Shown: positions 14,339-30,424 of the stretch, one piece after another | Numbering within the stretch: the stretch's first letter is position 1 | Layout: each line of letters starts with the position of its first letter | NCBI GenBank assembly: GCA_000004695.1 | Contig: CM000155.2 | Span: forward strand, 2,272,001-2,336,000 | Source of the DNA: Dictyostelium discoideum | Lineage: Eukaryota | Direction: 5' to 3' | DNA: 64,000 nucleotides | Notes under the pieces: model-generated | What the model was told of the DNA's origin: nothing | Seen by the model: only the letters and a program-made list of their open reading frames with translations | Databases searched by the model: none | Translations under genes and position numbers: made by a program

Positions 14339-16074
14339 TTAAAAATTTGAAAAATTTAAATTTTTATTATTATTAAAATCATCTATTATTAAAGGTTTAT
14401 AACCATTAAATGACACACCAAAATTTTTTAAAAATTTATATTGAATGTCGGATAACTTAAATTGGTTTTCAATAACTGTTTGCTGATTTGATTTGTTTCT
14501 TTTTATATTTATTAAATATTCTAATAGAGAGTCATTTTGTAATTTTACAGATGATTTTAAAATTCTAATTAAAAGGTCACAAAATTCATTTTTAGATAAT
14601 AAAATAAAATCAATTAGTTTGATAGTGAAATAGTGATTATTGGATTGAATGAAAATTTCAAATATATATTCAATTTCCTTTTCACAGAAAAAACCAATTG
14701 AAATTAAATATAAAATAACCCTAGGGTTTGAAGCCAATAAATCATGTAATAATCTTTTCTTAAATGAGTTGCTTTTGTTTAAAACCAATTGTTTCTTTAA
14801 ATACTGATCAATAAAAAAGACCCAATTATTATTTATACAAAGAAATAAAATATTTAAAAATTCATTCTTTTCAAATTGAATTTGATTTTCAGAGTTTGAA
14901 ATTTCGGTTGACCACTTTTTTAAAATAAAAGGTAAAAGTTTTTTATTTGATTGATCATTACTTTCAAATAAATGATGATTTAAAGTTTTTGTTTTATATT
15001 CGAAGGTTTTTTTTGAAATGTAATCATTAAAGTATGGAAGACTATTCAATTTATTAAAAAATTTACATCTTGATACTCTGCAAAGAGGAGGTGATTGTAA
15101 TAATCTTTCAAACATATTTTCAAATAGATTTTTATTATCTTGAATCTTTAATGTTTTAACAAAATTCAAATTCAAGTTATTGAATAGTAATTGTTGATCA
15201 TATTTAATTGAGGATTCTAATAAAGCAAAATAATTATATACACTATTAATAATTTGAGATTGATTCTCGATTGAGGTTAATTGAATTTTAAAGTGATCAA
15301 ACCAATAATTTTCAAATAAATAATTTAAAATTTCTTGATGATTTTCATTTGCTACAGATATTAATAAAGTTAGCGGTGGTTTATAATATTTAGTATATAG
15401 TTTTACTAAAGGTAAATCATTTTGAATGGAAAATGTACGATTTGAATCAAAAATCTTTTGAAGATTTATACCATTTTTTAAAAAGAATTGAAACTTTTCA
15501 ACTGTTAAATATTCAGATGATGATAAACCTCTCCATATTGTCGTTGGTGCTTTCTTTGAAAGTTCAATTGCATTTGATAAATCATTATTTATACATGTTG
15601 GTAAAAATTTAATATTATTTATTAATGAATCGAATGCACGAGTTTTTAAAATGTATTGAGCAATACTTGGATCTTTAACTATAATTGAACTGGTATAGGA
15701 ATTCTTTAATTTCTTTATAAAATCATCAGGTAAAGAAATCATAACTTTTAAAAGTACCAACATTGATGATTTCATTAATGAACATGGTCTAATTTTAAAT
15801 TGATCAATGGTTTTAATTGAAACTTTTGTATCATAAACTTTTATTTTCGAATCAAAAGGATCCATATTTGAATTTAATTTTTTCTTAAAAATTTCTAAAA
15901 CCATTTTAAACATAAATTCATCACTGTATTCTATAATCTTTTCTAAAAATGTTAAATTTGAAGAATTTGATTCAAATAAACCAATTTTATTCAATACCAT
16001 AGGTCCAAACTCTTTTGATAATTTCTTTTCAACAATTTTTTCTAAAACTTTAAAAATTGATTCTTCAAAATTTA

Positions 16075-16129
<55 letters not shown>

Positions 16130-16645
16130 GTTATTAGCTTGAGGAGTTATTAAATCTAATAAAATTTTAAATCTTCTTTTAGAATCACAACTTGATGAGA
16201 ATGAAAATTTTTCTAAATTTTTACAATCATAAATTGTTGGATTAAATATATCTACAATAAATTTCAATGTTTCATAATTTTCTATTGAAACTAATAATGA
16301 ATCTAAAGAATTTGAAACTTTTTTAAATTGTTGTTCAATTTCAAATTGAAAAATCTTATAAATCTTGTAAAATATTTGAAAATCTAATTCCTTCCATTTA
16401 AATAATTTATATAAACAATAATAATTAAAATTTATAAAATGTTTATAATTATCTTTTTGAGAATTTTCAAATAAATAATTTAATTTCTCTATTAATAAAA
16501 CTTCATTCTTGGTTTTAATTATTAATGAAAGTGGAAATTCATAATAATTATATGTTAGATAATATTGATTACTAATTTTTAAAAATTGAAAAATTTTTTT
16601 CCTTAAAAATGAATTTCTATAAACTTTAAAAAATAAATCTCCCAT
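14339..16645 (-). CDS. Paralog family member A (uncharacterised Dictyostelium-specific family)
   Basis: 768-aa ORF. N-terminal MGDLFFKVYRNSFLRKKIFQFL...YNYYEFPLSLIIKTKNEVLLIEKLNY, a motif shared with six downstream paralogs. Asn19 tract. Confidence 0.7.
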
Positions 16646-17489: not shown

Positions 17490-19847
17490 TTATTTAAAAG
17501 TTAAAGAATAATTAAAAATAGTATTTAAATTTTTAATGAAAAAATTATAATGTTGAGAAGAAGTTTTTTTTGATAAATAATTAATTTTTGAATTATTAAT
17601 TGATAAATGACCAATTAAAAATAATTTAATTAAAATTTTATGTAAAATAAAACTATTACCTAGTTTTCTTTCTAATGAAATTGAACAAAATGATAAATCA
17701 TTTAAAAAACCACCATTATAAACAGAAATGAACAAAAGTTCAACATTTAAAGAAAAACCAAAAGATTTAATTTGAGAATTTGTAAAGATAATCGAATTTA
17801 AAATTGCAAAACGAATAATATTTAATGCAAAGGTTTTTGATCTCCATTTCGAAAGTCCTTTTAAAATATTTTCATTTGAAATTAATTGAGCAATTACAAA
17901 TTTAGAATTTTTTTTATTTATTTTACTAATTGAACTATAGATTTGACCTAAAATTTCGAAAACCATATTAGATACGATATCAGTATACACCTTTCTCAAT
18001 TGAGAATTGTAAAGCCACTTTCTTGCAGTTCCTGGGTTACTTTTTAACCATGACACAAACTCTGGATTAAATTTAAAATTTAGTATACTAATATCATAGA
18101 TTTTATTATCATCTTCTTGATTAAAAAAAAAAGAAGACCTTTCATCAAGTTCTACATAATGTTGTAAAATTATTGGTGAAATGTAATTAAAAAGGTCAAT
18201 TAAATTACATTGAATTGAATGAATTAACAATAAAATAAGATTTGTTTTAAAAAGTGATGGAGATGATCCATCACCAAAGCATATATTACCATGGTTGATA
18301 ATATTCTCTAAAAAACATTTATGTAATTCTTTATTACTACTACTACTGCCAGATTCAAATGCTTTTTTAATTTGATTATAATTATACTTTTTTGGAAACC
18401 TTTTAAAATAAGATTTTAATGCATTCACATCTTGATTCTTGATAATAACATTAAGAATTTCTAATGGATTATAAAAAAATGGTATTTCTTTTTCAAAAAG
18501 ATTTGATTCTATCATTTCTTTATTAACTGATTGTAAAAAGTAGTAATCAATATATTTGTGTTGTGGGAGTGGTAAAGTCTCAAACTTGACCTGTTCTCTT
18601 TTTCCAATTTTTCTAAGTTGGTAATCACAAACCCAAGAGATTTTAACATTATATAAGTTTTTTAATTCTTCAAAATAATTATCATTTAACCATATTGCTA
18701 CATCTGAATCATATATTAATCTTTGTTTGTGAATTGGTTCTTTATCTCTTTGAAAATATTTCCAGTAAAAATTTTTACATAAAACTTTTACAATATCTAG
18801 GTTAAAACTTTCAAAAATAAATCCAATTGGTATATCGAATGATTCCAATATCGATCTCTCTATACTAATTCCTAATAATTTCACAATTTCATCATTATTT
18901 TCTAATAGTGCTAAAGGTAACTTTGTTGGTGGTAGTGGTGTATATTTATATTTTTCTAATAATAATTTAAGCATAAATTGATCTTGGTATTTACTAATTG
19001 CACTAAATAAATTATTTATTGCTGAATAGAATGGATCATACAATATTTGAAATTTATTTGGGAAATATTCTAAAATTAGTGAACCAAATAGTTTTGATTG
19101 ATTTGTTTTAATTATATACTCTAAATAATGTACCAATTCTCTGAATGATACATCAATTTTTAATTCACTAAGGATGTATCTAAAAATTTCTTTTTTCTTT
19201 TTAATTTCATCATCATCATCATCATCATCACCATTTACTGTTCTTTTAAATTTATCAAACATTTTAAATATTGGTTCTATATCTATGGTTTCAATTTCGA
19301 GATACTTATTATTTATCAAGTATTTAAGTTTCTTTAAATCACAAATACCAATTATAATTGAATTATAATCAATTCTAACCAATCGAGCTATATATGGACT
19401 ATTATAATTTAATTTATTATGATATTTAATTTCCTTATTGGTTTTTTTAATTTGTTTATTAATTTCTGTTATTTCATTTTTAAATGTTTCAAAAACAATT
19501 TCAAATAATTCAAATGGTAATTCCCTCCATTTATATAATCTTTTTAAACAATATTCACTAAAATTTAAAAAATGTTTACTTTCTATTATTGATTTATTAT
19601 TATTATTATTATTATTATTTTTAAAATATTTATTATAATTATTTATTTTTTCAATTAATAATGGTTGATTTTTTGTTTTTAATATTAATTCAAGTGGGAA
19701 ATCATAATAGTTATATCCAATATATGTTTGTTCTTTATTGTGTTGTGTAATATATGAATAGATTTTATTGATTAAATATTTATTTTTGAATACTTTATAA
19801 AATAAAAAATCCATTTTCATGTTTGGGTTGGGGGAGAAAATGATCAT
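17490..19847 (-). CDS. Paralog family member B
   Basis: 785-aa ORF. The track ORF starts at 19847 (MIIFSPNPNMKMDF...). The family-consistent start is the Met at 19814 (MDFLFYKVFKNKYLINKIYSYI...YNYYDFPLELILKTKNQPLLIEKINNY). Confidence 0.7.
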   Translation of the reverse strand: MIIFSPNPNMKMDFLFYKVFKNKYLINKIYSYITQHNKEQTYIGYNYYDFPLELILKTKNQPLLIEKINNYNKYFKNNNNNNNNKSIIESKHFLNFSEYCLKRLYKWRELPFELFEIVFETFKNEITEINKQIKKTNKEIKYHNKLNYNSPYIARLVRIDYNSIIIGICDLKKLKYLINNKYLEIETIDIEPIFKMFDKFKRTVNGDDDDDDDEIKKKKEIFRYILSELKIDVSFRELVHYLEYIIKTNQSKLFGSLILEYFPNKFQILYDPFYSAINNLFSAISKYQDQFMLKLLLEKYKYTPLPPTKLPLALLENNDEIVKLLGISIERSILESFDIPIGFIFESFNLDIVKVLCKNFYWKYFQRDKEPIHKQRLIYDSDVAIWLNDNYFEELKNLYNVKISWVCDYQLRKIGKREQVKFETLPLPQHKYIDYYFLQSVNKEMIESNLFEKEIPFFYNPLEILNVIIKNQDVNALKSYFKRFPKKYNYNQIKKAFESGSSSSNKELHKCFLENIINHGNICFGDGSSPSLFKTNLILLLIHSIQCNLIDLFNYISPIILQHYVELDERSSFFFNQEDDNKIYDISILNFKFNPEFVSWLKSNPGTARKWLYNSQLRKVYTDIVSNMVFEILGQIYSSISKINKKNSKFVIAQLISNENILKGLSKWRSKTFALNIIRFAILNSIIFTNSQIKSFGFSLNVELLFISVYNGGFLNDLSFCSISLERKLGNSFILHKILIKLFLIGHLSINNSKINYLSKKTSSQHYNFFIKNLNTIFNYSLTFK
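19818..19845. repeat. Inverted-repeat arm 1 (CATGTTTGGGTTGGGGGAGAAAATGATC)
   Basis: Its reverse complement lies at 20190-20216. Arm 1 overlaps the 5' end of family gene B. Confidence 0.85.
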
Positions 19848-20189
19848 TTTTATTTTTTTTTTTTTTTTTTTATTTTTTTTTTTTTTTTATTAATTTATTA
19901 ATAAAAATTTTTTTTTTTTAACTTATTTTTTATTTTTTATTTTTTTATTTTTTTTTTTTTTTTTGTGATTTAATTTTATTTTTAGTATGAATTTAGTGGA
20001 GAGAACTCAAAATACACACGATATAATATATAAAAATTAATGTAATCATTCTGTTTATTTTTTTTGTTTTTTTTTTTTTATTTTTAGAATTCAATTATTT
20101 ATCATTCTTTTTTTTATGTAATTGTTTTTTTTTATTTTGAAAAGAGAGGGAATATATTTTATATCAATGATAAAAAAAAAAAAAAAAAA

Positions 20190-20216
20190 GATCATTTTCT
20201 CCCCCAACCCAAACAT
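20190..20216. repeat. Inverted-repeat arm 2 (GATCATTTTCTCCCCCAACCCAAACAT)
   Basis: Perfect 27-bp reverse complement of 19819-19845, flanked by complementary A/T homopolymers. Sits just 3' of the stop of family gene C. Confidence 0.85.
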
Positions 20217-20228
20217 TTTTTTTTTTAT

Positions 20229-20631
20229 TTAAAATTTTAATTTATTAAAATTTTTATTAAAAATAGTAATATTGTTATAACTAGCATTATGTATCATTGA
20301 AAAAGAAAATAATGCATTGATTTCTGGAAATTTATTTGTTGATGATATTGTTCTTAATAAACAATTATCTACATTTTTAAATGACATATATCCATTAAAA
20401 AACATTTTAATTAAAATTTTATGAAATACAAATCCTTTACCATTATTTTTATCCAAAAATGGTCTACAACATAATATTTCATTAATACTATTTTCATAAA
20501 ATGATTTTACCAAATTTTCATCATCGAAACCAAATGATTTGAATTGATTATCTGAATCTAAAACAATACCATTAATAACAGCAAAACGAATGATATTTAA
20601 AGGAATATTTTTCAAATCCTTTTTATTTTCA

Positions 20632-20669
<38 letters not shown>

Positions 20670-20673
20670 TTTA

Positions 20674-20768
<95 letters not shown>

Positions 20769-22702
20769 TTTATGATTATTATTATTAATATTTTCATACA
20801 TAATTTGATTTGATGTTAATTCTCTAATGATAAACTTTGAATCTGATTTTAAAGTTTTATTAATAATTTTATAATCAACTTTTTCATTTAAAATTTGAAA
20901 GACAGTGTGTGATAATGCATCAAAATAAAATGATTTTAAATGTGAATTGAAAAACCATTTTCTTGAGATATTATTATTTTTAGCACTTTTTAAACATTTA
21001 ATAAATTGGTGATTATATATAAAATCTTTTAAAGTAATCTTTTCATTATTCTTTATTGCTAATGAAATAAAATTAAAAAGTTCAAAAGAACCATAATCAA
21101 CACATGAAGCCAAAAATGAAATAATTGAATTCATATTATGATTTTTTGGAAAATTACAATTAAATATATTTTCTATAAAACAATTAAATAATTGTTTATT
21201 TCCACTATAAAATGCACTATTAACTTGATCGAAATTGTAATAATTTGGAAAAATATTAAAATAAGCAATCAATACTTCAACATTTTCTTCCTTTATTATA
21301 ATATCAACTAATGATGTTAAAAATGAATATTTATTATGAAGTTGTGCTAAAATTGAATATTCATTATAATTATTATTATTATTATTATTATGCTGTTGTA
21401 CTAAAAATTGTTCAGACTCTATCATTTCTTTATTGATAAAATCAAAATAACAATTTGCAATATATTGAAAAGTTTCAAATTTAACCTGTTCCCTTTTATT
21501 ATTGATTCTTAAATGTAAATCACATAGACATGAGATTTTAATTTCGTTTTTCTTTTTTTTTAATAATAAAAAATAATTATCACTTAAAAACAATGCAATT
21601 TTAGGGTCATATATTATTTGAATAGTTGAATTTCTATAAAATCTATCTGTTGTTTCATTGAATAAACTTGATTTTAATGCTTCACAAAGTACCTTTACAA
21701 TTTCTAAATCAAAATTGTTTAAAATAAATTCAAGTGGAAAATTCATTGCTTCTAAAGTTGATTTACTTATTCTAATACCTAACAATGTAAAAATTTCTGA
21801 TTCAGTTGTTGGTGTTAGTGTTGGTGTTGCTGTTGGTGGTGCAAGTGTTGTTGTTGTTGTTGTTTTTGTTGATGATGATGGTGGTGCAGGTGTTGTTGGT
21901 GCAAGTGTTGTTAGTGTTGGTGTTGGTGGTGGGGGTGGTGGTGGTGTTGGTGTTGTTGGTGGCGCAAGTGTTGTTAGTGTTAGTGTTGGTGTTGGTGTTG
22001 GTGTTGGTGTTGGTGTTGGTGTTGGTGTTGGTGGTGTTGGTGGTGTTGGTGGTGGTGTATATTTATATTTTTCTAATAATAATTTAAATATATATTGGTC
22101 TTTGTATTTAGAAATTATTTGAAATACATTGGTTAATTGATTATGTATAATTGGTAATTCTTTTGGGAATAAATCTATAATTTGTTTTCCAAAAATTTTC
22201 GATTGATCTTTAATCATAATTTCACATAAATATGTTGTTAATTGAGTAAATGATAAATCAATTTTAGATTCGTTTATTAAATATTGAAATATTTCTTTTA
22301 ATTTTATTTCTTCATCATGATGATCATGATTCACTTGGATTCTATAAATCATTTTTCTTTTTCTTTTTAATTTTCTTGAATGTATTAAACTAAAAACTGA
22401 ATTGATATTGATTGACTCAGTTTCGAGTAATTGATTATTTATTATATATTTGAGTTTATCTAAATCTCCATTAATGATTAGATAACTATGGTATAGTATT
22501 TTTTCTTTTCCATATTTATTTATTTTAATTTTTCCAATTATTTTTTCAATTTCTTTTTTAAATGTTTGAAAAATAAGTTCAAATAATTCTAATGATAATT
22601 CACTCCATTTATATAATAGTTTTAAACATTGTTCATTAAATGTTAAAAAATGTTTACTATTTAATATTGATATTTCTGAATATTTATTATTTTTATTATT
22701 AC

Positions 22703-22760
<58 letters not shown>

Positions 22761-22955
22761 TATAAAATATTTAATATAATTATTTAATTTTTCAATTAAT
22801 AATGGTTGATTCTTTGTTTTTAAAACAAGTTCTAATGGGAAATCATAATAGCTGTATCTGATTAATCTTTGTTCTTTATTATACTCTGAAATATATGAAT
22901 AGATTTTTTTCTTTAAATAAATATTTTTAAAAACCTGACTGAATAATAAATCCAT
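20229..22955 (-). CDS. Paralog family member C (expanded Pro/Thr linker and poly-Asn)
   Basis: 908-aa ORF. About 90% identical to members D and E outside the low-complexity inserts. PTPTPT...TTLAPP linker of about 130 aa. N55-like tract (ATT)n at 20640-20790. Confidence 0.75.
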
Positions 22956-23095: not shown

Positions 23096-23103
23096 TCCCA
23101 CAA
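23096..23103 (+). promoter_or_regulatory. DUSE-like box (TCCCACAA) upstream of a Class I RNA gene
   Basis: Matches the Dictyostelium upstream sequence element consensus [AT]CCCA[CT]AA. About 75 nt upstream of the GTTGAC stem start. Confidence 0.55.
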
Positions 23104-23178: not shown

Positions 23179-23242
23179 AGTTGACCTTACAGCAATCTTA
23201 ACAATTTTATCACATTATAAAAAAAAACCTCAGTCAACTGTA
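23179..23242 (+). ncRNA. Class I small ncRNA gene (copy 1)
   Basis: aGTTGAC-CCTTACAGCAA-tcttaacaattttatcacattataaaaaaaaacctca-GTCAACt. The 5' and 3' ends form a 7-bp stem (AGTTGAC/GTCAACT), with the conserved 11-nt Class I motif CCTTACAGCAA directly after the 5' stem. Length about 60 nt. Confidence 0.65.
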
Positions 23243-23608
23243 TAAAGTGATAAATTTTTTTAAGTTCCTAACTTCCGAATATTAAGAGAGGTCCGAGGTT
23301 CGAAACTCCGTATAGTAACCAATAAAAGTGACCCAAATGGGGCTCAGCTTAGTTGTAGGCCCACTAAAGCTAAAAACTACAAAAAACAATTTGAATCACC
23401 CAAAAACCAAAAACCAATCAAAAAAAAAAAAAAAAAGATTTAAAAAAAGAATGGAAAAAAAGTTATACATAACTTTTTTTTATTTAAAATTTTAATTTAT
23501 TAAAATTTTCATTAAAAATAGAAATATTATTATAACTAGAATTACGTATCATTGAAAAAGAAAATAAGGCATTGATTTCTGGAAATTTATTTGTTGATGA
23601 TAATGTTC

Positions 23609-25951
23609 TTAATGAACGATTTCCTTTATCTTTAAATGACATATATCCATTAAAAACATTTTAATTAAAATTTTATGAAATACAAATCCTTTACCATTAT
23701 TTTTATCCAATAATTGTTTACTACATAATATTTCATCAATACTATTTTCATATAACGATTTTACTAAATCTTCATCATCGAAACCAAATGATTTGAATTG
23801 GTTATCTGAATCTAAAACAATACCATTAATAACAGCAAAACGAATGATATTTAAAGGAATATTTTTCAAATCCTTTATATTTTCATTATTATTATTAATA
23901 TTATTATCATTATTATTACAATACATAATTTGGTTTGATATTAATTCTCCAATGATAAACTTTGAATCTGATTTTAAAGCTTTACGAATAATTCCATAAT
24001 CAACTTTTTTATTTAAAATTTGAAAGACTGTATGTGATAATGCATCAGAATAAATTGATTTTAAATGTGAATTGATAAACCATTTTCTTGAGATATTATT
24101 ATTATTTTTTGCACTTTTTAAACATTTAATAAATCGATAATTATTAATAAAATCATTTAAAGTAATCTTTTCATTATTCTTAATTGTTAATGAAATAAAA
24201 TTAAAAAGTTTAAAAGAACCATAATCGATACATGAAGCCAAAAATGAAATAATTGAAATTATATTATAATTGTATGGAAAATTACCATTAAATATATTTT
24301 CTATAAAACAATTAAATAATTGTTTATTTCCACTATAAAATGCACTATTAACTTGATCGAAATTGTAATAATTTGGAAAAATACTAAAATGAGCAATCAA
24401 TACTTCAACATTTTCTTCCTTTATTATAATATCAACTAATGATGTTAAAAATGGATATTTATTAAAATTAATTTGCTGTTGCGCTAATAATGAATTATTA
24501 TAATAATTATTAATATTATTATTATTTTGTCGTGCTAAAAATTGTTCAGACTCTATCATTTCTTTATTGATAGTATCAAAATAACAATTTAAAATATATT
24601 GAGAAGTTTCAAATTTAACCTGTTCCCTTTTACCAATGATTCTTAATTGTAAATCACATAGCCATGAGATTTTAATTTCATTTTTCTTTTTTTTTAATAA
24701 TAAAAAATAATTATCACTTAAAAACAATGCAATTTTAGGGTCATATATTATATGATTAGTTGGGCATGTATTGAATTTATCTGTTGTTTCATTGAATAAT
24801 CTTGATTTTAATGCTTCACAAAGTACCTTTACAATTTCTAAATCAAAATTGTTTAAAATAAATTCAAGTGGAAAATTCATTGCTTCTAAAGTTGATTTAC
24901 TTATTCTAATACCTAACAATGTAAAAATTTCTGATTCGGTTGTTGTTGATGTTGCTTTTGTTGCTGTTGTTGGTGGTACAAGTGTTGGTGTTGGTGTTTG
25001 TGTTGGTGTTGGTGTTGGTGTTGGTGGTGTTGGTGGTGTATATTTATATTTATCTAATAATAATTTAAATATATATTGATCTTTAAATTTAGAAATTATA
25101 TCAAATACATTGGTTAATTGCTTATGTATGATTGGTAATTCTTTTGGAAATAATTCTATAATTTGTTTTCCAAATATTTTCGATTGATCTGTAATCATAA
25201 TTTCACATAGATATGTTGTTAATTGAGTAAATGATAAATAAATTTTATATTCATTTATTAAATATTGAAATATTTCTTGTAATTTTATTTCTTCATCATG
25301 ATTCACTTGGATTGTAATTTCAGAACGAATCATTTTTCTTTTTCTTTTTAATTTTCTTGAATGTATTAAACTAAAAACTGAATTGATATTGATTGACTCA
25401 GTTTCGAGTAATTGATTATTTATTATATATTTGAGTTTATCTAAATCTCCATTACTGATTAAATTAATATGGTGTTGTATTTTTTCTTTTCCATCTTTAT
25501 TTATTTTTTTAATTTTTCCAATTATTTCTTCAATTTCTTTTTTAAATGTTTGAAAAATAAGTTCAAATAATTCTAATGATAATTCACCCCATTTATATAA
25601 TAGTTTTAAACATTGTTCATTAAATGTTAAAAAATGTTTACTATTTAATATTGATATTTCTGAATACTGATTATTATCGTTATTATTATTATTTTTATTA
25701 TTACTATTATTATTATTTTTTTTTTTATTACTATTATTTTTATTATTATTATTATTTTTAAAATATTTATTAAAATTATTTAATTTTTCAATTAATAATG
25801 GTTGATTCTTTGTTTTTAAAACGAGTTCTAATGGGAAATCATAATAGTTATATCTGATTAATCTTTGTTCTTTATTATACTCTGAAATATATGAATAGAT
25901 TTTTTTCTTTAAATAAATATTTTTAAAAACCTGACTGAATAATAAATCCAT
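23609..25951 (-). CDS. Paralog family member D (C-terminus altered by a 1-nt deletion)
   Basis: 780-aa ORF. Collinear with C and E up to ...GKGFVFHKILIKMF, then a frame change (ttaaaaacatttt versus E ttaaaaaacaattt) gives a short aberrant tail. DNA homology continues 3' of the new stop. Confidence 0.7.
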   Translation of the reverse strand: MDLLFSQVFKNIYLKKKIYSYISEYNKEQRLIRYNYYDFPLELVLKTKNQPLLIEKLNNFNKYFKNNNNNKNNSNKKKNNNNSNNKNNNNNDNNQYSEISILNSKHFLTFNEQCLKLLYKWGELSLELFELIFQTFKKEIEEIIGKIKKINKDGKEKIQHHINLISNGDLDKLKYIINNQLLETESININSVFSLIHSRKLKRKRKMIRSEITIQVNHDEEIKLQEIFQYLINEYKIYLSFTQLTTYLCEIMITDQSKIFGKQIIELFPKELPIIHKQLTNVFDIISKFKDQYIFKLLLDKYKYTPPTPPTPTPTPTQTPTPTLVPPTTATKATSTTTESEIFTLLGIRISKSTLEAMNFPLEFILNNFDLEIVKVLCEALKSRLFNETTDKFNTCPTNHIIYDPKIALFLSDNYFLLLKKKKNEIKISWLCDLQLRIIGKREQVKFETSQYILNCYFDTINKEMIESEQFLARQNNNNINNYYNNSLLAQQQINFNKYPFLTSLVDIIIKEENVEVLIAHFSIFPNYYNFDQVNSAFYSGNKQLFNCFIENIFNGNFPYNYNIISIISFLASCIDYGSFKLFNFISLTIKNNEKITLNDFINNYRFIKCLKSAKNNNNISRKWFINSHLKSIYSDALSHTVFQILNKKVDYGIIRKALKSDSKFIIGELISNQIMYCNNNDNNINNNNENIKDLKNIPLNIIRFAVINGIVLDSDNQFKSFGFDDEDLVKSLYENSIDEILCSKQLLDKNNGKGFVFHKILIKMFLMDICHLKIKEIVH

Positions 25952-26088: not shown

Positions 26089-26096
26089 TCCCACAA
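26089..26096 (+). promoter_or_regulatory. DUSE-like box (TCCCACAA), copy 2
   Basis: Same spacing (about 75 nt) to the second Class I RNA. Confidence 0.55.
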
Positions 26097-26170: not shown

Positions 26171-26233
26171 AGTTGACCTTACAGCAATCTTAACAAAATT
26201 TTTTCTGAATAAAAAAACCTAAGTCAACTGTAT
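26171..26233 (+). ncRNA. Class I small ncRNA gene (copy 2)
   Basis: AGTTGAC-CCTTACAGCAA-tcttaacaaaattttttctgaataaaaaaacctaa-GTCAACTgtat. A partial copy of the 3' half (aaaacctaagtcaactgtatc) recurs at 26321-26345. Confidence 0.65.
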
Positions 26234-26559
26234 CTTTTATAAAATTTTTTCTAAAACCTAAGTCTTTTTTTTTTGAATTGGATAACGCAATTATTATTTG
26301 CTTCTCCTTGAGGTTATTCTAAAACCTAAGTCAACTGTATCTTTATAAAATTTTTTAAGGTTCGAACTCCCAAGCTAAAGATGTCCTAGGTTCGAAACTC
26401 GGTCACGAATCAAATTAATGTGACCCAAAATGGGGCTCACCTTGTTGTAGTCTTACTAAAGCTAAAAACAATCAAACCACCCAAAAACAGTAAAAAACTA
26501 AAAACCAACCAACATTCAAATTTAAAAAAGAATGGAAAAAAGTTATATATAAATATATT

Positions 26560-26982
26560 TTAAAATTTTAATTTATTAAAATCTTCATTAAAAATAGTAA
26601 TATTGTTATAATTAGCATTACGTATCATTGAAAAAGAAATTAATGCATTGATTTCTGGAAATTTATTTGTTGATGATAATGTTCTTAATAAACGATTTCC
26701 TTTAACTTTAAATGACATATATCCATTAAAAAACAATTTAATTAAAATTCTATGAAATACAAATCCTCTACCATTATTTTTATCCAATAATGGTCTACTA
26801 CATAATATTTCATTGATACTATTTTCATAAAATGATTTTACCAAATTTTCATCATCGAAACCAAATGATTTGAATTGAATATCTGAATCTAAAACAATAC
26901 CATTAATAACAGCAAAACGAATGATATTTAAAGGAATATTTTTCAAATCCATTTTATTTTCATTATTATTTTCATTATTGTA

Positions 26983-27072
<90 letters not shown>

Positions 27073-29019
27073 ATATATAATTTGGTTTGATGTTAATTCT
27101 CTAATGATAAACTTTGAATCTGATTTTAAAGCTTTATGAGTAATTCTATAATCGACTTTTTTGTTTAAAATTTGAAAGACAGTATGTGATAATGCATCAA
27201 AATAAAATGATTTTAAATGTGAATTGATAAACCATTTTCTTGAGATATTATTATTACTTTTAACACTTTTTAAACATTCAATAAATTGATAATTACTAAT
27301 AAAATATTCTATACTAATATTTTCATTATTCTTTATTGTTAATGAAATAAAATTAAAAAGTTTGAAAGAACCATAATCGATACATGAAGCCAAAAATGAA
27401 ATAATTGAAAATATATTATAATTGTATGGAAAATTACCATTAAATATATTTTCTATAAAACAATTAAATAATTGTTTATTTCCACTATAAAATGCATTAT
27501 TAACTTGATTGAAATTGTAATAATTTGGAAAAATATTAAAATAAGCAATCAATGCTCCAACATCTTCTTCCATTACTATAATATCAACAAATGATGTTAA
27601 AAATGAATAATTATTATTATAATAATTATTATGCTGTTGTGCTAAAAATTGTTCAGACTCTATCATTTCTTTATTGATAAAATCAAAATAACAATTTGCA
27701 ATATATTGAGAAGTTTCAAATTTAACCTGTTCCCTTTTACCAACGATTCTTAATCGTAAATCACATAGCCATGAGATTTTAATTTCGTTTTTCTTTTTTT
27801 TTAATAATAAAAAATAATTATCACTTAAAAACAATGCAATTTTAGGGTCATATATTATTTGAATAGTTGAATTTGTATTAAATTTATCTGTTGTTTCATT
27901 GAGTAATCTTGATTTTAATGCTTCGCAAAGTACCTTTACAATTTCTAAATCAAAATTGTTTAAAATAAATTCAAGTGGGAAATTCATTGCTTCTAAAGTT
28001 GATTTACTTATTCTAATACCTAACAATGTAAAAATTTCTGATTCGGTTGTTGTTGGTGTTGGTGTTGGTGTTGGTGTTGGTTTTTTTGTTGGTGTTTGTG
28101 GTGGTACAAGTGTTGGTGTTGGTGTTGGTGGTGGTGTTGGTGGTGTTGGTGGTGGTGTATATTTATATTTATCTAATAATAATTTAAATATAAATTGGTC
28201 TTTGTATTTAGAAATTATTTGAAATACATTGGTTAATTGATTATGTATAATTGGTAATTCTTTTGGAAATAATTCTATAATTTGTTTTCCAAATATTTTC
28301 GATTGATCTTTAATCATAATTTCACATAAATATGTTGTTAATTGAGTGAATGATAAATCAATTTTTGATTCTTTTATTAAATATTGAAATATTTCTTGTA
28401 ATTTTATTTCTTCATCATGATGATCATGATTCACTTGGATTGTAATTTCAGAACGAATCATTTTTCTTTTTCTTTTTAATTTTCTTGAATGTATTAAACT
28501 AAAAACTGAATTGAAGTTGATTGATTCAGTTTCGAGTAATTGATTATCTATTATATATTTGAGTTTATCTAAATCTCCATTACTGATTAAATTAATATGG
28601 TGTTGTATTTTTTCTTTTCTATATTTATTTATTTTTTTAATTTTTCCAATTAATTTCTCAATTTCTTTTTTAAATGTTTGAAAAATAAGTTCAAATAATT
28701 CTAATGGTAATTCACTCCATTTATATAATAGTTTTAAACATTGTTCATTAAATGTTAAAAAATGTTTACTATTTAATATTGATATTTCTGAATACTGATT
28801 ATTATTATTATTAATATTATTATTTTTAAAATATTTATTATAATTATTTAATTTTTCAATTAATAATGGTTGATTCTTTGTTTTTAAAACGAGTTCTAAT
28901 GGGAAATCATAATAGTTATATCTGATAGATCTCTGTTCTTTATTATACTCTGAAATATATGAATAGATTTTTTTCTTTAAATAAATATTTTTAAAAACCT
29001 GACTGAATAATAAATCCAT
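26560..29019 (-). CDS. Paralog family member E
   Basis: 819-aa ORF with an intact family C-terminus (...NNITIFNEDFNKLKF*). Confidence 0.75.
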
Positions 29020-29087: not shown

Positions 29088-29157
29088 AATAAAATTTCAC
29101 TACAGTAGCGTAGTGAATTTTATTATTTAATTTCACTACAGTAGCGTAGTGAAAAAA
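29088..29157 (+). repeat. Two direct copies of a 23-bp hairpin-capable motif (ATTTCACTACAGTAGCGTAGTGAA), spaced 40 bp apart
   Basis: Each unit contains the 6-bp inverted repeat CACTAC...GTAGTG around AGTAGC. Lies next to the retroelement remnant. Confidence 0.7.
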
Positions 29158-29580
29158 AAAAATCACTGACCCTAAATTTTTTTTTTTTTCAAAAAACAAA
29201 TAAAGTTTATTAAATTATTATCTTTTATTTGAATATTAGCTCTATTTAAGGTTTTTTAATTTTTTTTTTTTAATTTAATTTTTTTTTTTTTTAATTTAAT
29301 TTTTTTTTTTTTTTTTGCGCCAAAATTTTTTTTTTTTTTCCCCAACAAAACTTTTTTTTTTTTTTTTTTTTTTTTTATTTTCATTTTCCCAAAATGAAAC
29401 AAGATAAATTATTTAAAATTTATTGAAGATAATAATTTTGAAAATACTAAACATAAAAATTATAAATTTTTACATGATGAGTAAATATTTTTCCTTACCA
29501 TAACACAATCATTTTTTAAATTCTGACCAATAAAAAACAGAAACAGAAAAGAAAAATTATTTAGAATTGAAAAAAAAGTC

Positions 29581-30424
29581 ATGAATTGTGGCGGAGATAG
29601 AAATATATCAAAAGAAGTGTGTTTAGAAGTAATTAATGATTATAGAATGGTATCACTCTGGGAAGAAATGCATAAAGGTCATATAGGAAGAGATGCAACC
29701 TATGGGAACTACAAGACTAAATATTATAATATGGGATTGTATTCTTTTGTATCTGATGCAGTAGATACGTGTGACATTTGCCAACGAAATAGAATAAAAG
29801 GTTTGGTATCAATCATTTTTTATATGATGTTTTGTAACTTTTATATTAAAACTCTGTGAAAGTATGGCACTGCGATAATGGACGTGAATTTAAAAACAAA
29901 GTCCAAAAAGAATTCCTAAAACTTTTTCCAGGCTCCAAGTCAGCACATGGAGCTCCTCGTACACCAACAACTCAAGGTATGGTAGAAAGATTGAATCGAA
30001 CTATCAAGGAGAGGATCTCAAAATTAAAACAACAAGAGTATGATATTGTGAACAATATAAATTATCGATATGTTTATTAATTAATCATTTATAAATAAAT
30101 TTTAGTTTTCTTGATGGTACTTCTAGGTCTCTTTCTGAACTATTAAAACAAGCTTTGTATGATTACAATAATACAAAAACAAGAACAATTAAAATGACAC
30201 CATCTCAAGCTGTTGGTATTGTTCCTTTGTTTATTAATGTTCAATCAGAACAAGACTCTCAATCAATTGGTGTTTCAGATGTTTCAAAAGAAGAAAGAAC
30301 AGCTATTATTCTTGAAAATCTCACAAGTTACCAAAATCAATGGAATTCAAAACCACCAAAGGGATTGAAAGTTGGTGATACTGTACTCTTTCTAGAAATT
30401 AAAAAAAATAATGTAAGTAATTAA
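29581..30424 (+). mobile_element. Degenerate LTR-retrotransposon (Ty3/gypsy-type) integrase remnant
   Basis: Three broken ORFs. (1) HHCC zinc finger: H-KGH-IGRDATYGNYKTKYYNMGLYSFVSDAVDTCDICQ. (2) C-terminal half of the rve core: WHCDNGREFKN...GAPRTPTTQGMVERLNRTIKERI. (3) C-terminal SH3-like region (GLKVGDTVLF). The DD part of the DDE triad is missing and the reading frames are broken. Confidence 0.7.

Follow-up and report, generated by a model that had tools for sequence, protein, structure and literature searches.

The window analysed here is a 64-kb stretch of chromosome 6 of Dictyostelium discoideum AX4, whose genome is 34 Mb long and has a GC content of ~20%. It carries five tandem paralogous genes on the minus strand, with 75–90% identity among them. 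Gene B and gene C are neighbors in this array, and the DNA between them includes a perfect inverted repeat that is rich in G on one strand. The relevant features (coordinates are those of the window) are as follows.

17490–19820, minus strand: gene B (DDB_G0292950), with an ORF that can be extended to 19847
19819–19845, minus strand: arm 1, read here as the source copy; ATGTTTGGGTTGGGGGAGAAAATGATC on the plus strand and GATCATTTTCTCCCCCAACCCAAACAT on the gene (minus) strand
19846–19863, plus strand: T-rich run beside arm 1, pairing with the A18 run at 20172–20189 with two mismatches
19864–20171, no strand assigned: spacer interior, ordinary B–C intergenic DNA, not inverted
20172–20216, plus strand: AX4-specific replacement patch of 45 nt (A18 plus arm 2)
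20190–20216, plus strand: arm 2, read here as the derived reverse-complement copy; identical to GATCATTTTCTCCCCCAACCCAAACAT and 12 nt past the gene C stop codon
20229–20231, minus strand: stop codon of gene C, a 908-aa paralog that occupies 20229–22955

The annotated start of gene B differs between assemblies, being at 19814 in AX4 (MDFLF) and at 19820 in GCA_054883475.1, an independent assembly of the AX4 lineage (MKMDF). Transposon debris is present in the vicinity, in the form of an integrase-like ORF (29581–29859) and a PF17921 gene.

An earlier note on this DNA, made from the sequence alone, had drawn attention to the repeat, and on re-reading the arms are indeed exact reverse complements (27/27). 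The note gave their length as 27–28 bp; 27 nt is correct, and there is no 28th pair, as positions 19818 (C) and 20217 (T) are not complementary. The arms are separated by a spacer of 344 nt (19846–20189), close to the 340 bp given previously. Their extension into complementary T- and A-runs, also described in the note, is real: 19819–19863 pairs with 20172–20216 at 43 of 45 positions (96%). Arm 2 was said to abut the stop codon of gene C but lies 12 nt from it.

The duplication was considered very improbable by chance, and our controls agree. Within the 64 kb, the two arms are the only copies of the sequence at up to three mismatches, and none of 100 shuffled sequences yielded any. Among inverted repeats with at least five G/C per arm, the longest perfect example in the window is this one, at 27 nt, and the runner-up has 15 nt. 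Chance origin is ruled out. Nor is the repeat an assembly artefact, because GCA_054883475.1 carries the same arms and spacer as AX4, with differences in homopolymer lengths alone. No further copy of the arm was found in the window or in the related sequences L003–L006 (including ~45 kb of orthologous arrays). Exact scans with a 26-mer of metagenome, prokaryotic-genome and viral collections gave no match, a weak null given that such collections are unlikely to include Dictyostelium. The arm sequence was also not found in the literature searched, which yielded nothing of relevance on the assemblies either.

The history of the repeat can be approached by comparison with the orthologous B–C junction of two divergent D. 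discoideum isolates, L003 (GCA_054859385.1) and L004 (GCA_054859355.1). These resemble one another and thus amount to roughly one effective outgroup lineage. Family members from D. cf. discoideum (L005) and D. firmibasis (L006) are non-orthologous, come from another locus, and are uninformative. Junctions were compared using targeted MAFFT alignments and Smith-Waterman alignments with shuffle controls. These superseded small-word blastn of the B–C junction against the paralogous junctions, which was swamped by low-complexity matches.

On the minus strand, arm 1 is the 5′ leader of gene B, or an in-frame N-terminal extension of it (M-IIFSPNPN-M), directly upstream of the family-type start MKMDFLF... 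The orthologous leader occupies the same position before the B ortholog in L003 (...ATGGTCATCATTTTTCTCCAAACCCAAACATGAAAATGG) and L004 (...ATGATCACCATTTTTTCTCCAACCCAAACATGAAAATGG), and in all three strains an in-frame upstream extension covers the leader region. The earlier note had regarded the MIIFSPNPNM extension as artificial. The upstream ATG extension does exist, but the description as artificial is not sustained, given that the other strains have in-frame ...FSPNPNMKMD. Judged from these alignments, arm 1 is ancestral and present in all strains compared. Because the leader orthologs sit at the same position in L003 and L004, the source sequence would already have existed in the ancestor.

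The spacer interior is likewise ancestral in arrangement. Read in gene orientation, it aligns collinearly to L003 16118–16395 and L004 19423–19660, with scores of 143 and 153, respectively, against shuffle means of 69 and 62 (z of ~10 and 17). A non-AT island that the earlier note had pointed out in the spacer lies at ~19985–20030 and shows conservation across the other strains. The flanks are collinear with the other strains too, by the stop codon and TAAATA(n) on one side and by ATCAT[TC][GA]AT... and the spacer interior on the other. As far as these alignments go, then, everything around the patch is in its original order. The AX4 B–C junction is ~600–650 bp shorter than that of the other strains, a change to which we assign no polarity.

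Arm 2 behaves differently. Of seven family genes examined, six (AX4 genes D and E, and four genes of L003 and L004, the direct C orthologs among them) share a 36–38-nt block in the 3′ flank, with the pattern G[CT]TATATA.AAC-T7-[CA]CATTC-T7-AATT (or, written otherwise, G[TC]TAT.T.TAAC-T7-[CA]CATTC-T7-AA). AX4 gene C is the sole examined member with arm 2 in place of the block. Neither the orthologous site of L003 and L004 nor the 3′ flank of any other family gene examined has arm 2. In the comparison of AX4 junctions, as proposed in the earlier note, the block is found at D and E and arm 2 instead at C.

Aligned linearly to the ancestral-like block, the 45-nt patch scores −4 to −5, and the identical columns (27 of 51) are all in T-runs. 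Against AX4's own B leader, taken as its reverse complement, it matches at 43 of 45 positions, whereas the leaders of the other strains, reverse complemented, give only 38/48 and 39/49. Arm 2 has the AX4-specific variants of the B leader (GATCAT--TTTCTCCCCCAACCC), which indicates that the copy was made later than the divergence of the strains and would explain the perfect identity of the arms. By these alignments the change is in the direction of gain of arm 2 in AX4, the ancestral block was replaced, and the replacing sequence is of reverse-complement origin. The direction of change leans partly on the flanks of paralogs, and gene conversion could, in principle, have homogenised these.

We consider it probable, with good confidence, that one short-range template-switch mutation, in the AX4/NC4 lineage of D. 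discoideum, left the inverted repeat as its footprint. Most likely, the start region of gene B was copied as its reverse complement over a short patch just 3′ of gene C. The ancestral 3′ flank of gene C would have been TAA-ATAAAAAAAA-GCTATATAAAAC-T7-CCATTC-T7-AATT-ATCATCAAT, with the gene B leader, (A)n-TAAAAATGATCA..TTTTCTCC..AACCCAAACATGAAAATGG, ~350 nt (AX4 distance) or more downstream. In the course of replication or of repair synthesis, the growing strand would have come off its template within the C 3′-flank A/T run, copied the opposite-sense strand across the B leader for at least 27 nt (probably ~45 nt with the adjoining A/T run), and then rejoined the original template beside the C stop codon. 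On the plus strand, the proposed switch points would be in the order 3 (19819), 2 (~19863), 1 (~20171), and 4 (20217), that is, the “3-2-1-4” pattern, which leaves a single perfect inverted repeat. The outcome would be the overwriting of 36–38 nt of ancestral flank by 45 nt of reverse-complemented B leader.

The T-rich run at 19846–19863 was probably part of the copied template, and it likely provided A/T-run microhomology at a switch point. The inner switch point falls in homopolymer runs, which preclude single-base placement of the switch points. No clear microhomology is seen at the outer one (AAAAAAAAAA|ATGTTT versus the source ATTTTC|ATGTTT). Switching may have been intra- or inter-strand, in replication or in break repair, and the event was presumably selectively neutral. 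The history may also be more complex than a single switch, given the shorter AX4 junction.

Perfect terminal inverted repeats around an AT-rich, non-coding interior of MITE-like size, with the integrase-like ORF and PF17921 gene close by, could suggest a MITE or foldback transposon, i.e., insertion between C and B of a non-autonomous element ~400 bp long, with terminal inverted repeats of 27 bp. Decisive against this is the lack of an empty site, as arm 1 and the interior are both in place in the other strains and arm 2 is all that is missing there. Moreover, arm 2 replaced ancestral sequence and was not inserted, and removal of the “element” would leave just ~18 nt between the C stop codon and the B ATG. 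Nor is there a target-site duplication: ATTTTC| on one side and |TTTTTT on the other share no direct repeat apart from the ambiguity of T-runs. Further arm copies were looked for in the 64-kb window, the ~45 kb of orthologous arrays and the metagenome, prokaryote and viral collections, and none was found. We regard a mobile element here as highly improbable. The geometry is also classic for inversion, in which the arms would flank DNA that flipped, or can flip, by recombination between them, and the AX4 spacer, inverted, is weakly similar to L003 16593–16934 (score of 116 against a shuffle mean of 78). The homology in gene orientation is far stronger and on informative blocks, whereas the inverted alignment matches T-run to T-run with scattered, gapped G/C matches. 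Both AX4-lineage assemblies have the same orientation and are collinear with L003 and L004, which makes an invertible segment barely credible. We judged the inverted similarity to the extra L003 DNA to be driven by T-runs plus a small inverted repeat internal to L003 (AATGATTACATT / AATGTAATCATT).

Alternatively, arm 2 might be ancestral and have disappeared from the other strains, for instance through conversion of the C 3′ flank by a paralog; the repeat would then be old, with its arms kept identical by concerted evolution. Tandem paralogs that are 75–90% identical could convert each other, and there is a single effective outgroup lineage. Even so, the other lineage would have to have undergone conversion over a precise tract, and the two 27-nt arms, which have in common AX4-specific indels not seen in the orthologous leaders, would have had to be homogenised continually. 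The flank of the C ortholog in L003 and L004 runs past the block into AX4-spacer-type ATCATCAAT... and not into paralog-type GATTGG..., and this continuation into spacer-orthologous sequence argues against conversion from D- or E-type flanks. We think ancestry of arm 2 very unlikely.

A further alternative is that the repeat is a selected functional element, either an RNA or DNA hairpin or a C 3′ UTR antisense to the leader and start codon of gene B, regulating B through dsRNA/RNAi or a translational block. The sense strand now holds a perfect 27-bp stem across 344 nt, so positioned that the C 3′ flank is antisense to the B leader and start region, and the complementarity spans the possible start codons of gene B. 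Folding, a check suggested in the earlier note, does predict a long-range stem in a read-through transcript (MFE of −80 kcal/mol vs. −41.8 for shuffles; z = −8.8), and the DNA fold has a z of −5.5, but the pairing is not conserved in L003 and L004. Dictyostelium possesses Dicer-like, RdRP and Argonaute proteins. The expression of gene B is reported as very low (RPKM <1), although the paper suggests no cause for this level, which is therefore not specific evidence for silencing. Arm 2 is specific to one lineage and so offers neither conservation nor covariation that would point to selection, and a 344-nt loop is unlike those of known miRNA precursors. The paralogous C–D and D–E junctions contain Class I RNA genes, which have the DUSE promoter motif. 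An Rfam scan of the B–C junction (19700–20330, E ≤10) gave no match, including to RF01414 (Class I RNA), and the DUSE pattern WCCCAYAA ([AT]CCCA[CT]AA) matches neither arm, so that the C-rich arm was rejected as a DUSE. Binding of the G-box/GBF type by the G-rich arm would be a further, conjectural possibility.

We give selection for such an element very little credence. The stem and the antisense relationship read as by-products of the switch; there is no evidence of their use and no function is indicated. It is conceivable, at very long odds, that the template switch wired C and B together at the RNA level, such that a stem (27–45 bp) or a 27-nt antisense feeds Dicer/RdRP and silences B. If true, this would be a de novo regulatory hairpin born in one mutation, and would fit an RPKM below 1 for gene B.

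The earlier note had offered three readings. The MITE or foldback insertion is not supported, for want of a target-site duplication, an extra copy in the sequences searched, and an empty site. The hairpin-forming regulatory element is unsupported as well: the pairing partner is missing in other strains, there is no Rfam match, and gene B is reported as barely expressed. The scar of a rearrangement comes closest, but the rearrangement would not be the one that created the junction, as the B–C junction exists elsewhere without the repeat. The scar would be that of a later, local event in the AX4 lineage, in which ~36 nt gave way to the reverse complement of sequence ~350 nt distant. A striking, G-rich perfect repeat in a 20%-GC genome is thus most likely an ordinary mutational footprint and neither a mobile element nor a conserved regulator, a clean negative, and a MITE annotation should be avoided. 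The locus provides a tidy example of templated inverted-copy mutation with a known direction of change and with a relatively long copy (27–45 nt) and distance (344 nt). If many such events were found in isolate assemblies, template switching would be a force shaping the repeat-rich, homopolymer-rich D. discoideum genome.

Several known systems are worth comparing. MITE and foldback-type elements, among which the Dictyostelium “thug” elements belong, share with this locus small, non-coding, AT-rich DNA between terminal inverted repeats. The AX4 repeat differs in that a gene leader of ancestral origin makes up one “terminus” and intergenic DNA with orthologs in other strains makes up the interior. 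Class I RNA loci have the same relative position between family genes, and CCCCCAACCCAAAC of the arm superficially resembles the DUSE TCCCACAA. Unlike the C–D and D–E junctions, which have both a Class I hit and a DUSE, the B–C junction has no Class I hit and its arms no DUSE. Quasi-palindrome correction, as described for E. coli and yeast (PMC7202029, PMC3820800, PMC8604942), similarly makes arms identical by template switching at inverted sequences and is linked to replication or repair. That process perfects a pre-existing imperfect repeat with a short spacer, whereas the AX4 repeat appears to have arisen de novo: we found no convincing quasi-palindrome in the ancestral 3′ flank, except for A/T runs and possibly ATGT/ATC.

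The closest comparison is with short-range template switches. The four-point model is credited to Loytynoja & Goldman 2017 in Monttinen & Loytynoja 2022 (PMC8794818), and its definition includes the 3-2-1-4 class with a single inverted repeat (PMC7954356; PMC8794818). Source distances are described as “tens to hundreds of nucleotides” (PMC7954356, Walker et al. 2021). The sequence-level elements of the definition are seen at this locus (a cluster confined to the descendant, a near-100% reverse-complement match, an ancestral source, linear flanks, and the source distance), with support from a simple comparison of alignment scores. We found no report of template-switch mutations in Dictyostelium in the literature searched. 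The AX4 case differs from the events described there in that the 344-nt distance and 27–45-nt copy are at the large end of the range and in that the host is an extremely AT-rich amoeba. Otherwise it resembles them: copying of nearby ancestral sequence in reverse complement accounts in full for a mutation cluster specific to the descendant, both sides align linearly, the stretch of the ancestor from point 1 to point 4 is replaced, and the 3-2-1-4 order would yield a perfect inverted repeat in one step.

The five paralogs of the array are all encoded on the minus strand:

14339-16645, minus strand: gene A, family paralog
17490-19814 or 19820, minus strand: gene B (DDB_G0292950), family paralog
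20229-22955, minus strand: gene C, family paralog
23609-25951, minus strand: gene D (DDB_G0292934), family paralog
26560-29019, minus strand: gene E, family paralog

The inverted repeat is located in the B-C junction of this tandem array. Exact protein matches assign the window, which has ~20% GC and extended homopolymer and ATT runs, to chromosome 6 of D. discoideum AX4. Its arms are exact reverse complements, ATGTTTGGGTTGGGGGAGAAAATGATC at 19819-19845 and its partner at 20190-20216. The earlier note began arm 1 one base early (19818) and gave a perfect length of 27-28 bp (it is 27 nt, because a 28th pair would set C against T) and a spacer of 340 bp (344 nt as measured). As it also described, the arms run into complementary T and A runs, through which the repeat extends to 45 nt with two mismatches. 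Arm 1 spans nearly the entire upstream ORF extension MIIFSPNPN and the AT of the following ATG. Arm 2 was said to abut the gene C stop codon; in fact, 12 nt separate the two. The view that such a duplication is very improbable by chance is borne out: no further copy of the arm occurs in the 64-kb window at ≤3 mismatches, none occurs in 100 shuffles, and among perfect inverted repeats window-wide whose arms each have ≥5 G/C, the runner-up measures 15 nt. The structure recurs in an independent assembly (GCA_054883475.1), differing there in homopolymer lengths alone, so the repeat is not an assembly artefact.

In genes C, D, and E, the Pro/Thr-rich (PTPTPT...) and poly-Asn tracts (21650-22130, 24770-25080, and 27900-28220) vary in length by paralog, and GVGV-rich opposite-strand "ORFs" over these tracts are artefacts of the repeats. 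The gene D ORF ends at 23609 (...FLMDICHLKIKEIVH), and C-/E-like coding sequence (...RTLSSTNKFPEINALFSFSMIRNSSYNNISIFNENFNKLKF) runs on in another frame to ~23484 (23484-23620, minus strand); gene D thus has a frameshift at the C-terminal end, and the 780-aa product is called identically in both AX4-lineage assemblies. The sole tRNA gene of the window, an intact tRNA-Gln(UUG) (14132-14204, plus strand, 67 bits), lies ~135 nt past the gene A 3' end. Upstream of gene E (~29095-29170), a small unit with an internal palindrome, TTCACTACGCTACTGTAGTGAAA (CACTAC...GTAGTG), occurs twice in direct orientation; the 5' flanks of genes C and D lack it. The stretch separating gene E from another family member contains an integrase-like ORF with the zinc-finger motif CDICQRNR (29581-29859 and beyond, plus strand) and, in a second assembly (L002, 4458-6316), a gene of 550 aa that weakly matches PF17921 Integrase_H2C2; it has the look of a retrotransposon fragment that breaks up the array.

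The C-D and D-E junctions are mutually homologous, and contain the following:

23180-23240, plus strand: Class I RNA gene, C-D junction (Rfam RF01414, 53-57 bits)
26172-26230, plus strand: Class I RNA gene, D-E junction (Rfam RF01414, 53-57 bits)
23096-23103: DUSE-like TCCCACAA motif, C-D junction, 76-77 nt upstream of the Class I RNA gene
26089-26096: DUSE-like TCCCACAA motif, D-E junction, 76-77 nt upstream of the Class I RNA gene

Both also hold tRNA-like debris (~23290-23400 and ~26385-26470, minus-strand reading; e.g., gagtttcgaacctcggacctc and the T-arm-like GGTTCGAA in reverse complement). ARAGORN makes no tRNA call for these fragments, which may be what is left of tRNA genes or of retroelement targets. 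The B-C junction has no Class I RNA gene (Rfam at E ≤10), TCCCACAA motif, or tRNA-like debris, and a Class I RNA/DUSE identity for its repeat was rejected on the Rfam and motif tests. The gene C 3' flank agrees with the D and E flanks no further than TAAATA(n), and departs from them where arm 2 has its outer end. The tandem duplication unit of the family includes the Class I RNA genes; given eight further matches in the orthologous arrays of two other strains, genes and RNAs seem to have been amplified jointly.

Those strains, L003 (GCA_054859385.1) and L004 (GCA_054859355.1), are divergent D. discoideum isolates, the two with an orthologous array in a homolog search of other assemblies; being alike, they count as roughly one outgroup lineage. 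Protein identity is ~84% for their B orthologs and 95% for the A ortholog, found in L003 only. Because a recognisable version of arm 1, ATGGTCATCATTTTTCTCCAAACCCAAACATGAAAATGG or ATGATCACCATTTTTTCTCCAACCCAAACATGAAAATGG, immediately precedes the B ortholog in each, arm 1 is evidently ancestral. In all three strains this region lies within an upstream extension that is in frame and ends ...F(S/F)(P/S)NPNMKMD, so the C-rich B leader may be coding and the annotated starts (19814 or 19820) too far downstream. The extensions are MIIFSPNPNMKMD, MKNKNGHHFSPNPNMKMD, and MKNKNDHHFFSNPNMKMD (window 19812-19847, minus strand; L003 17007-17060; L004 20367-20420), and their upstream ATG differs among strains.

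In gene orientation, the spacer interior aligns to L003 16118-16395 and L004 19423-19660 (scores 143 and 153 vs. shuffle means of 69 and 62; informative blocks TATAAAATATATTC, GAATGATAAATAATTGAATTCTAAAAATAAA, AGAATGATTACATT, TGTGTATTTTGAG, and TTCATA.TAAA). Inverted, it scores far lower and depends on T-runs. The interior thus aligned is, by all appearances, ordinary junction DNA in normal orientation. Arm 2 is missing from both isolates. Its site is occupied by GCTATATAAAAC-T7-CCATTC-T7-AATT, a block that also lies 3' of the stop codon in AX4 D, AX4 E, and two more paralogs of L003 and L004; it is present in 6/7 family 3' flanks, the sole exception being AX4 gene C.

We compared alignment scores for the AX4-specific patch (ATGTTTGGGTTGGGGGAGAAAATGATC plus T18, 45 nt, gene orientation). 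Against the 36-38-nt ancestral block, linear alignment scores -4 to -5, with 27/51 columns identical, exclusively in T-runs. When the patch is compared with the B leader of AX4 itself in reverse complement, 43/45 positions agree, vs. 38/48 and 39/49 for the leaders of the two isolates. Arm 2 therefore has the AX4-specific leader form, which dates the copying to after strain divergence and accounts for the arms still being identical. We consider it highly probable, from these comparisons, that the inverted repeat is the scar of a lineage-specific template-switch (inverted-copy) mutation. Pairing of the ancestral-flank T7 with the A/T run that adjoins the B leader would be possible, likely providing microhomology at one switch point; the other would be without clear microhomology.

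A MITE or foldback insertion, as the earlier note suggested, is exceedingly improbable: the repeat has no target-site duplication, no empty site is seen (L003 and L004 have arm 1 and the interior without arm 2), no extra copies occur in the sequence covered (the 64-kb window at ≤3 mismatches, ~45 kb of orthologous arrays from other strains, and metagenome, prokaryote, and viral collections), and one "terminus" is the ancestral B leader. That the segment between the arms is invertible has close to negligible probability, given the gene orientation of the spacer relative to both isolates and the T-run-based inverted alignment. That arm 2 is ancestral and was lost elsewhere is less parsimonious and very unlikely; the C-ortholog flank in L003 and L004 continues into sequence orthologous to the AX4 spacer rather than paralog-type sequence, and AX4-specific indels are common to both AX4 arms. 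The earlier suggestion of a rearrangement scar survives as the scar of an inverted copy, but not as the origin of the junction, which L003 and L004 have without arm 2.

A template switch may not be the whole history, because the AX4 junction (408 nt) is ~600-650 bp shorter than those of L003 and L004 (~1001 and ~1057 nt, to the MKM start codon), a change that could have run in either direction. DNA without an AX4 counterpart (L003 16385-16990, L004 19650-20330) includes strain-specific insertions and a shared hairpin-like CCAAGATATTTTCGAGCTC.TAAAAAACC(C)GTGAAAATATCTT; L003 contains a small inverted repeat of its own as well, AGAATAATTACATT (~16258) and AATGTAATCATT (16815). Indels seem to arise readily in this junction, as may additional inverted-copy events.

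Folding predicts a long-range stem in a hypothetical C-to-B read-through RNA (MFE -80 kcal/mol vs. -41.8 for shuffles, z = -8.8) and the same stem in single-stranded DNA (z = -5.5); any perfect 27-bp repeat would fold so. The proposed hairpin-forming regulatory element finds no support, the stem not being conserved because its pairing partner, arm 2, is lineage-specific. The analysis gave no sign of function, and the arm sequence does not occur in the literature searched. That the gene C 3' end is now antisense to the region where B starts, or that a hairpin in read-through RNA enters the RNAi pathway, is speculative and highly unlikely.

The AX4 scar would be a fresh instance of an already known event type, and of low general interest. 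It shares with the four-point template-switch model (PMC7954356, PMC8794818) differences clustered in the descendant only, a 2->3 fragment that is the reverse complement of ancestral sequence close by, L->1 and 4->R fragments that stay collinear, a 1-4 interval that is replaced, and a 3-2-1-4 order that yields a single perfect inverted repeat.
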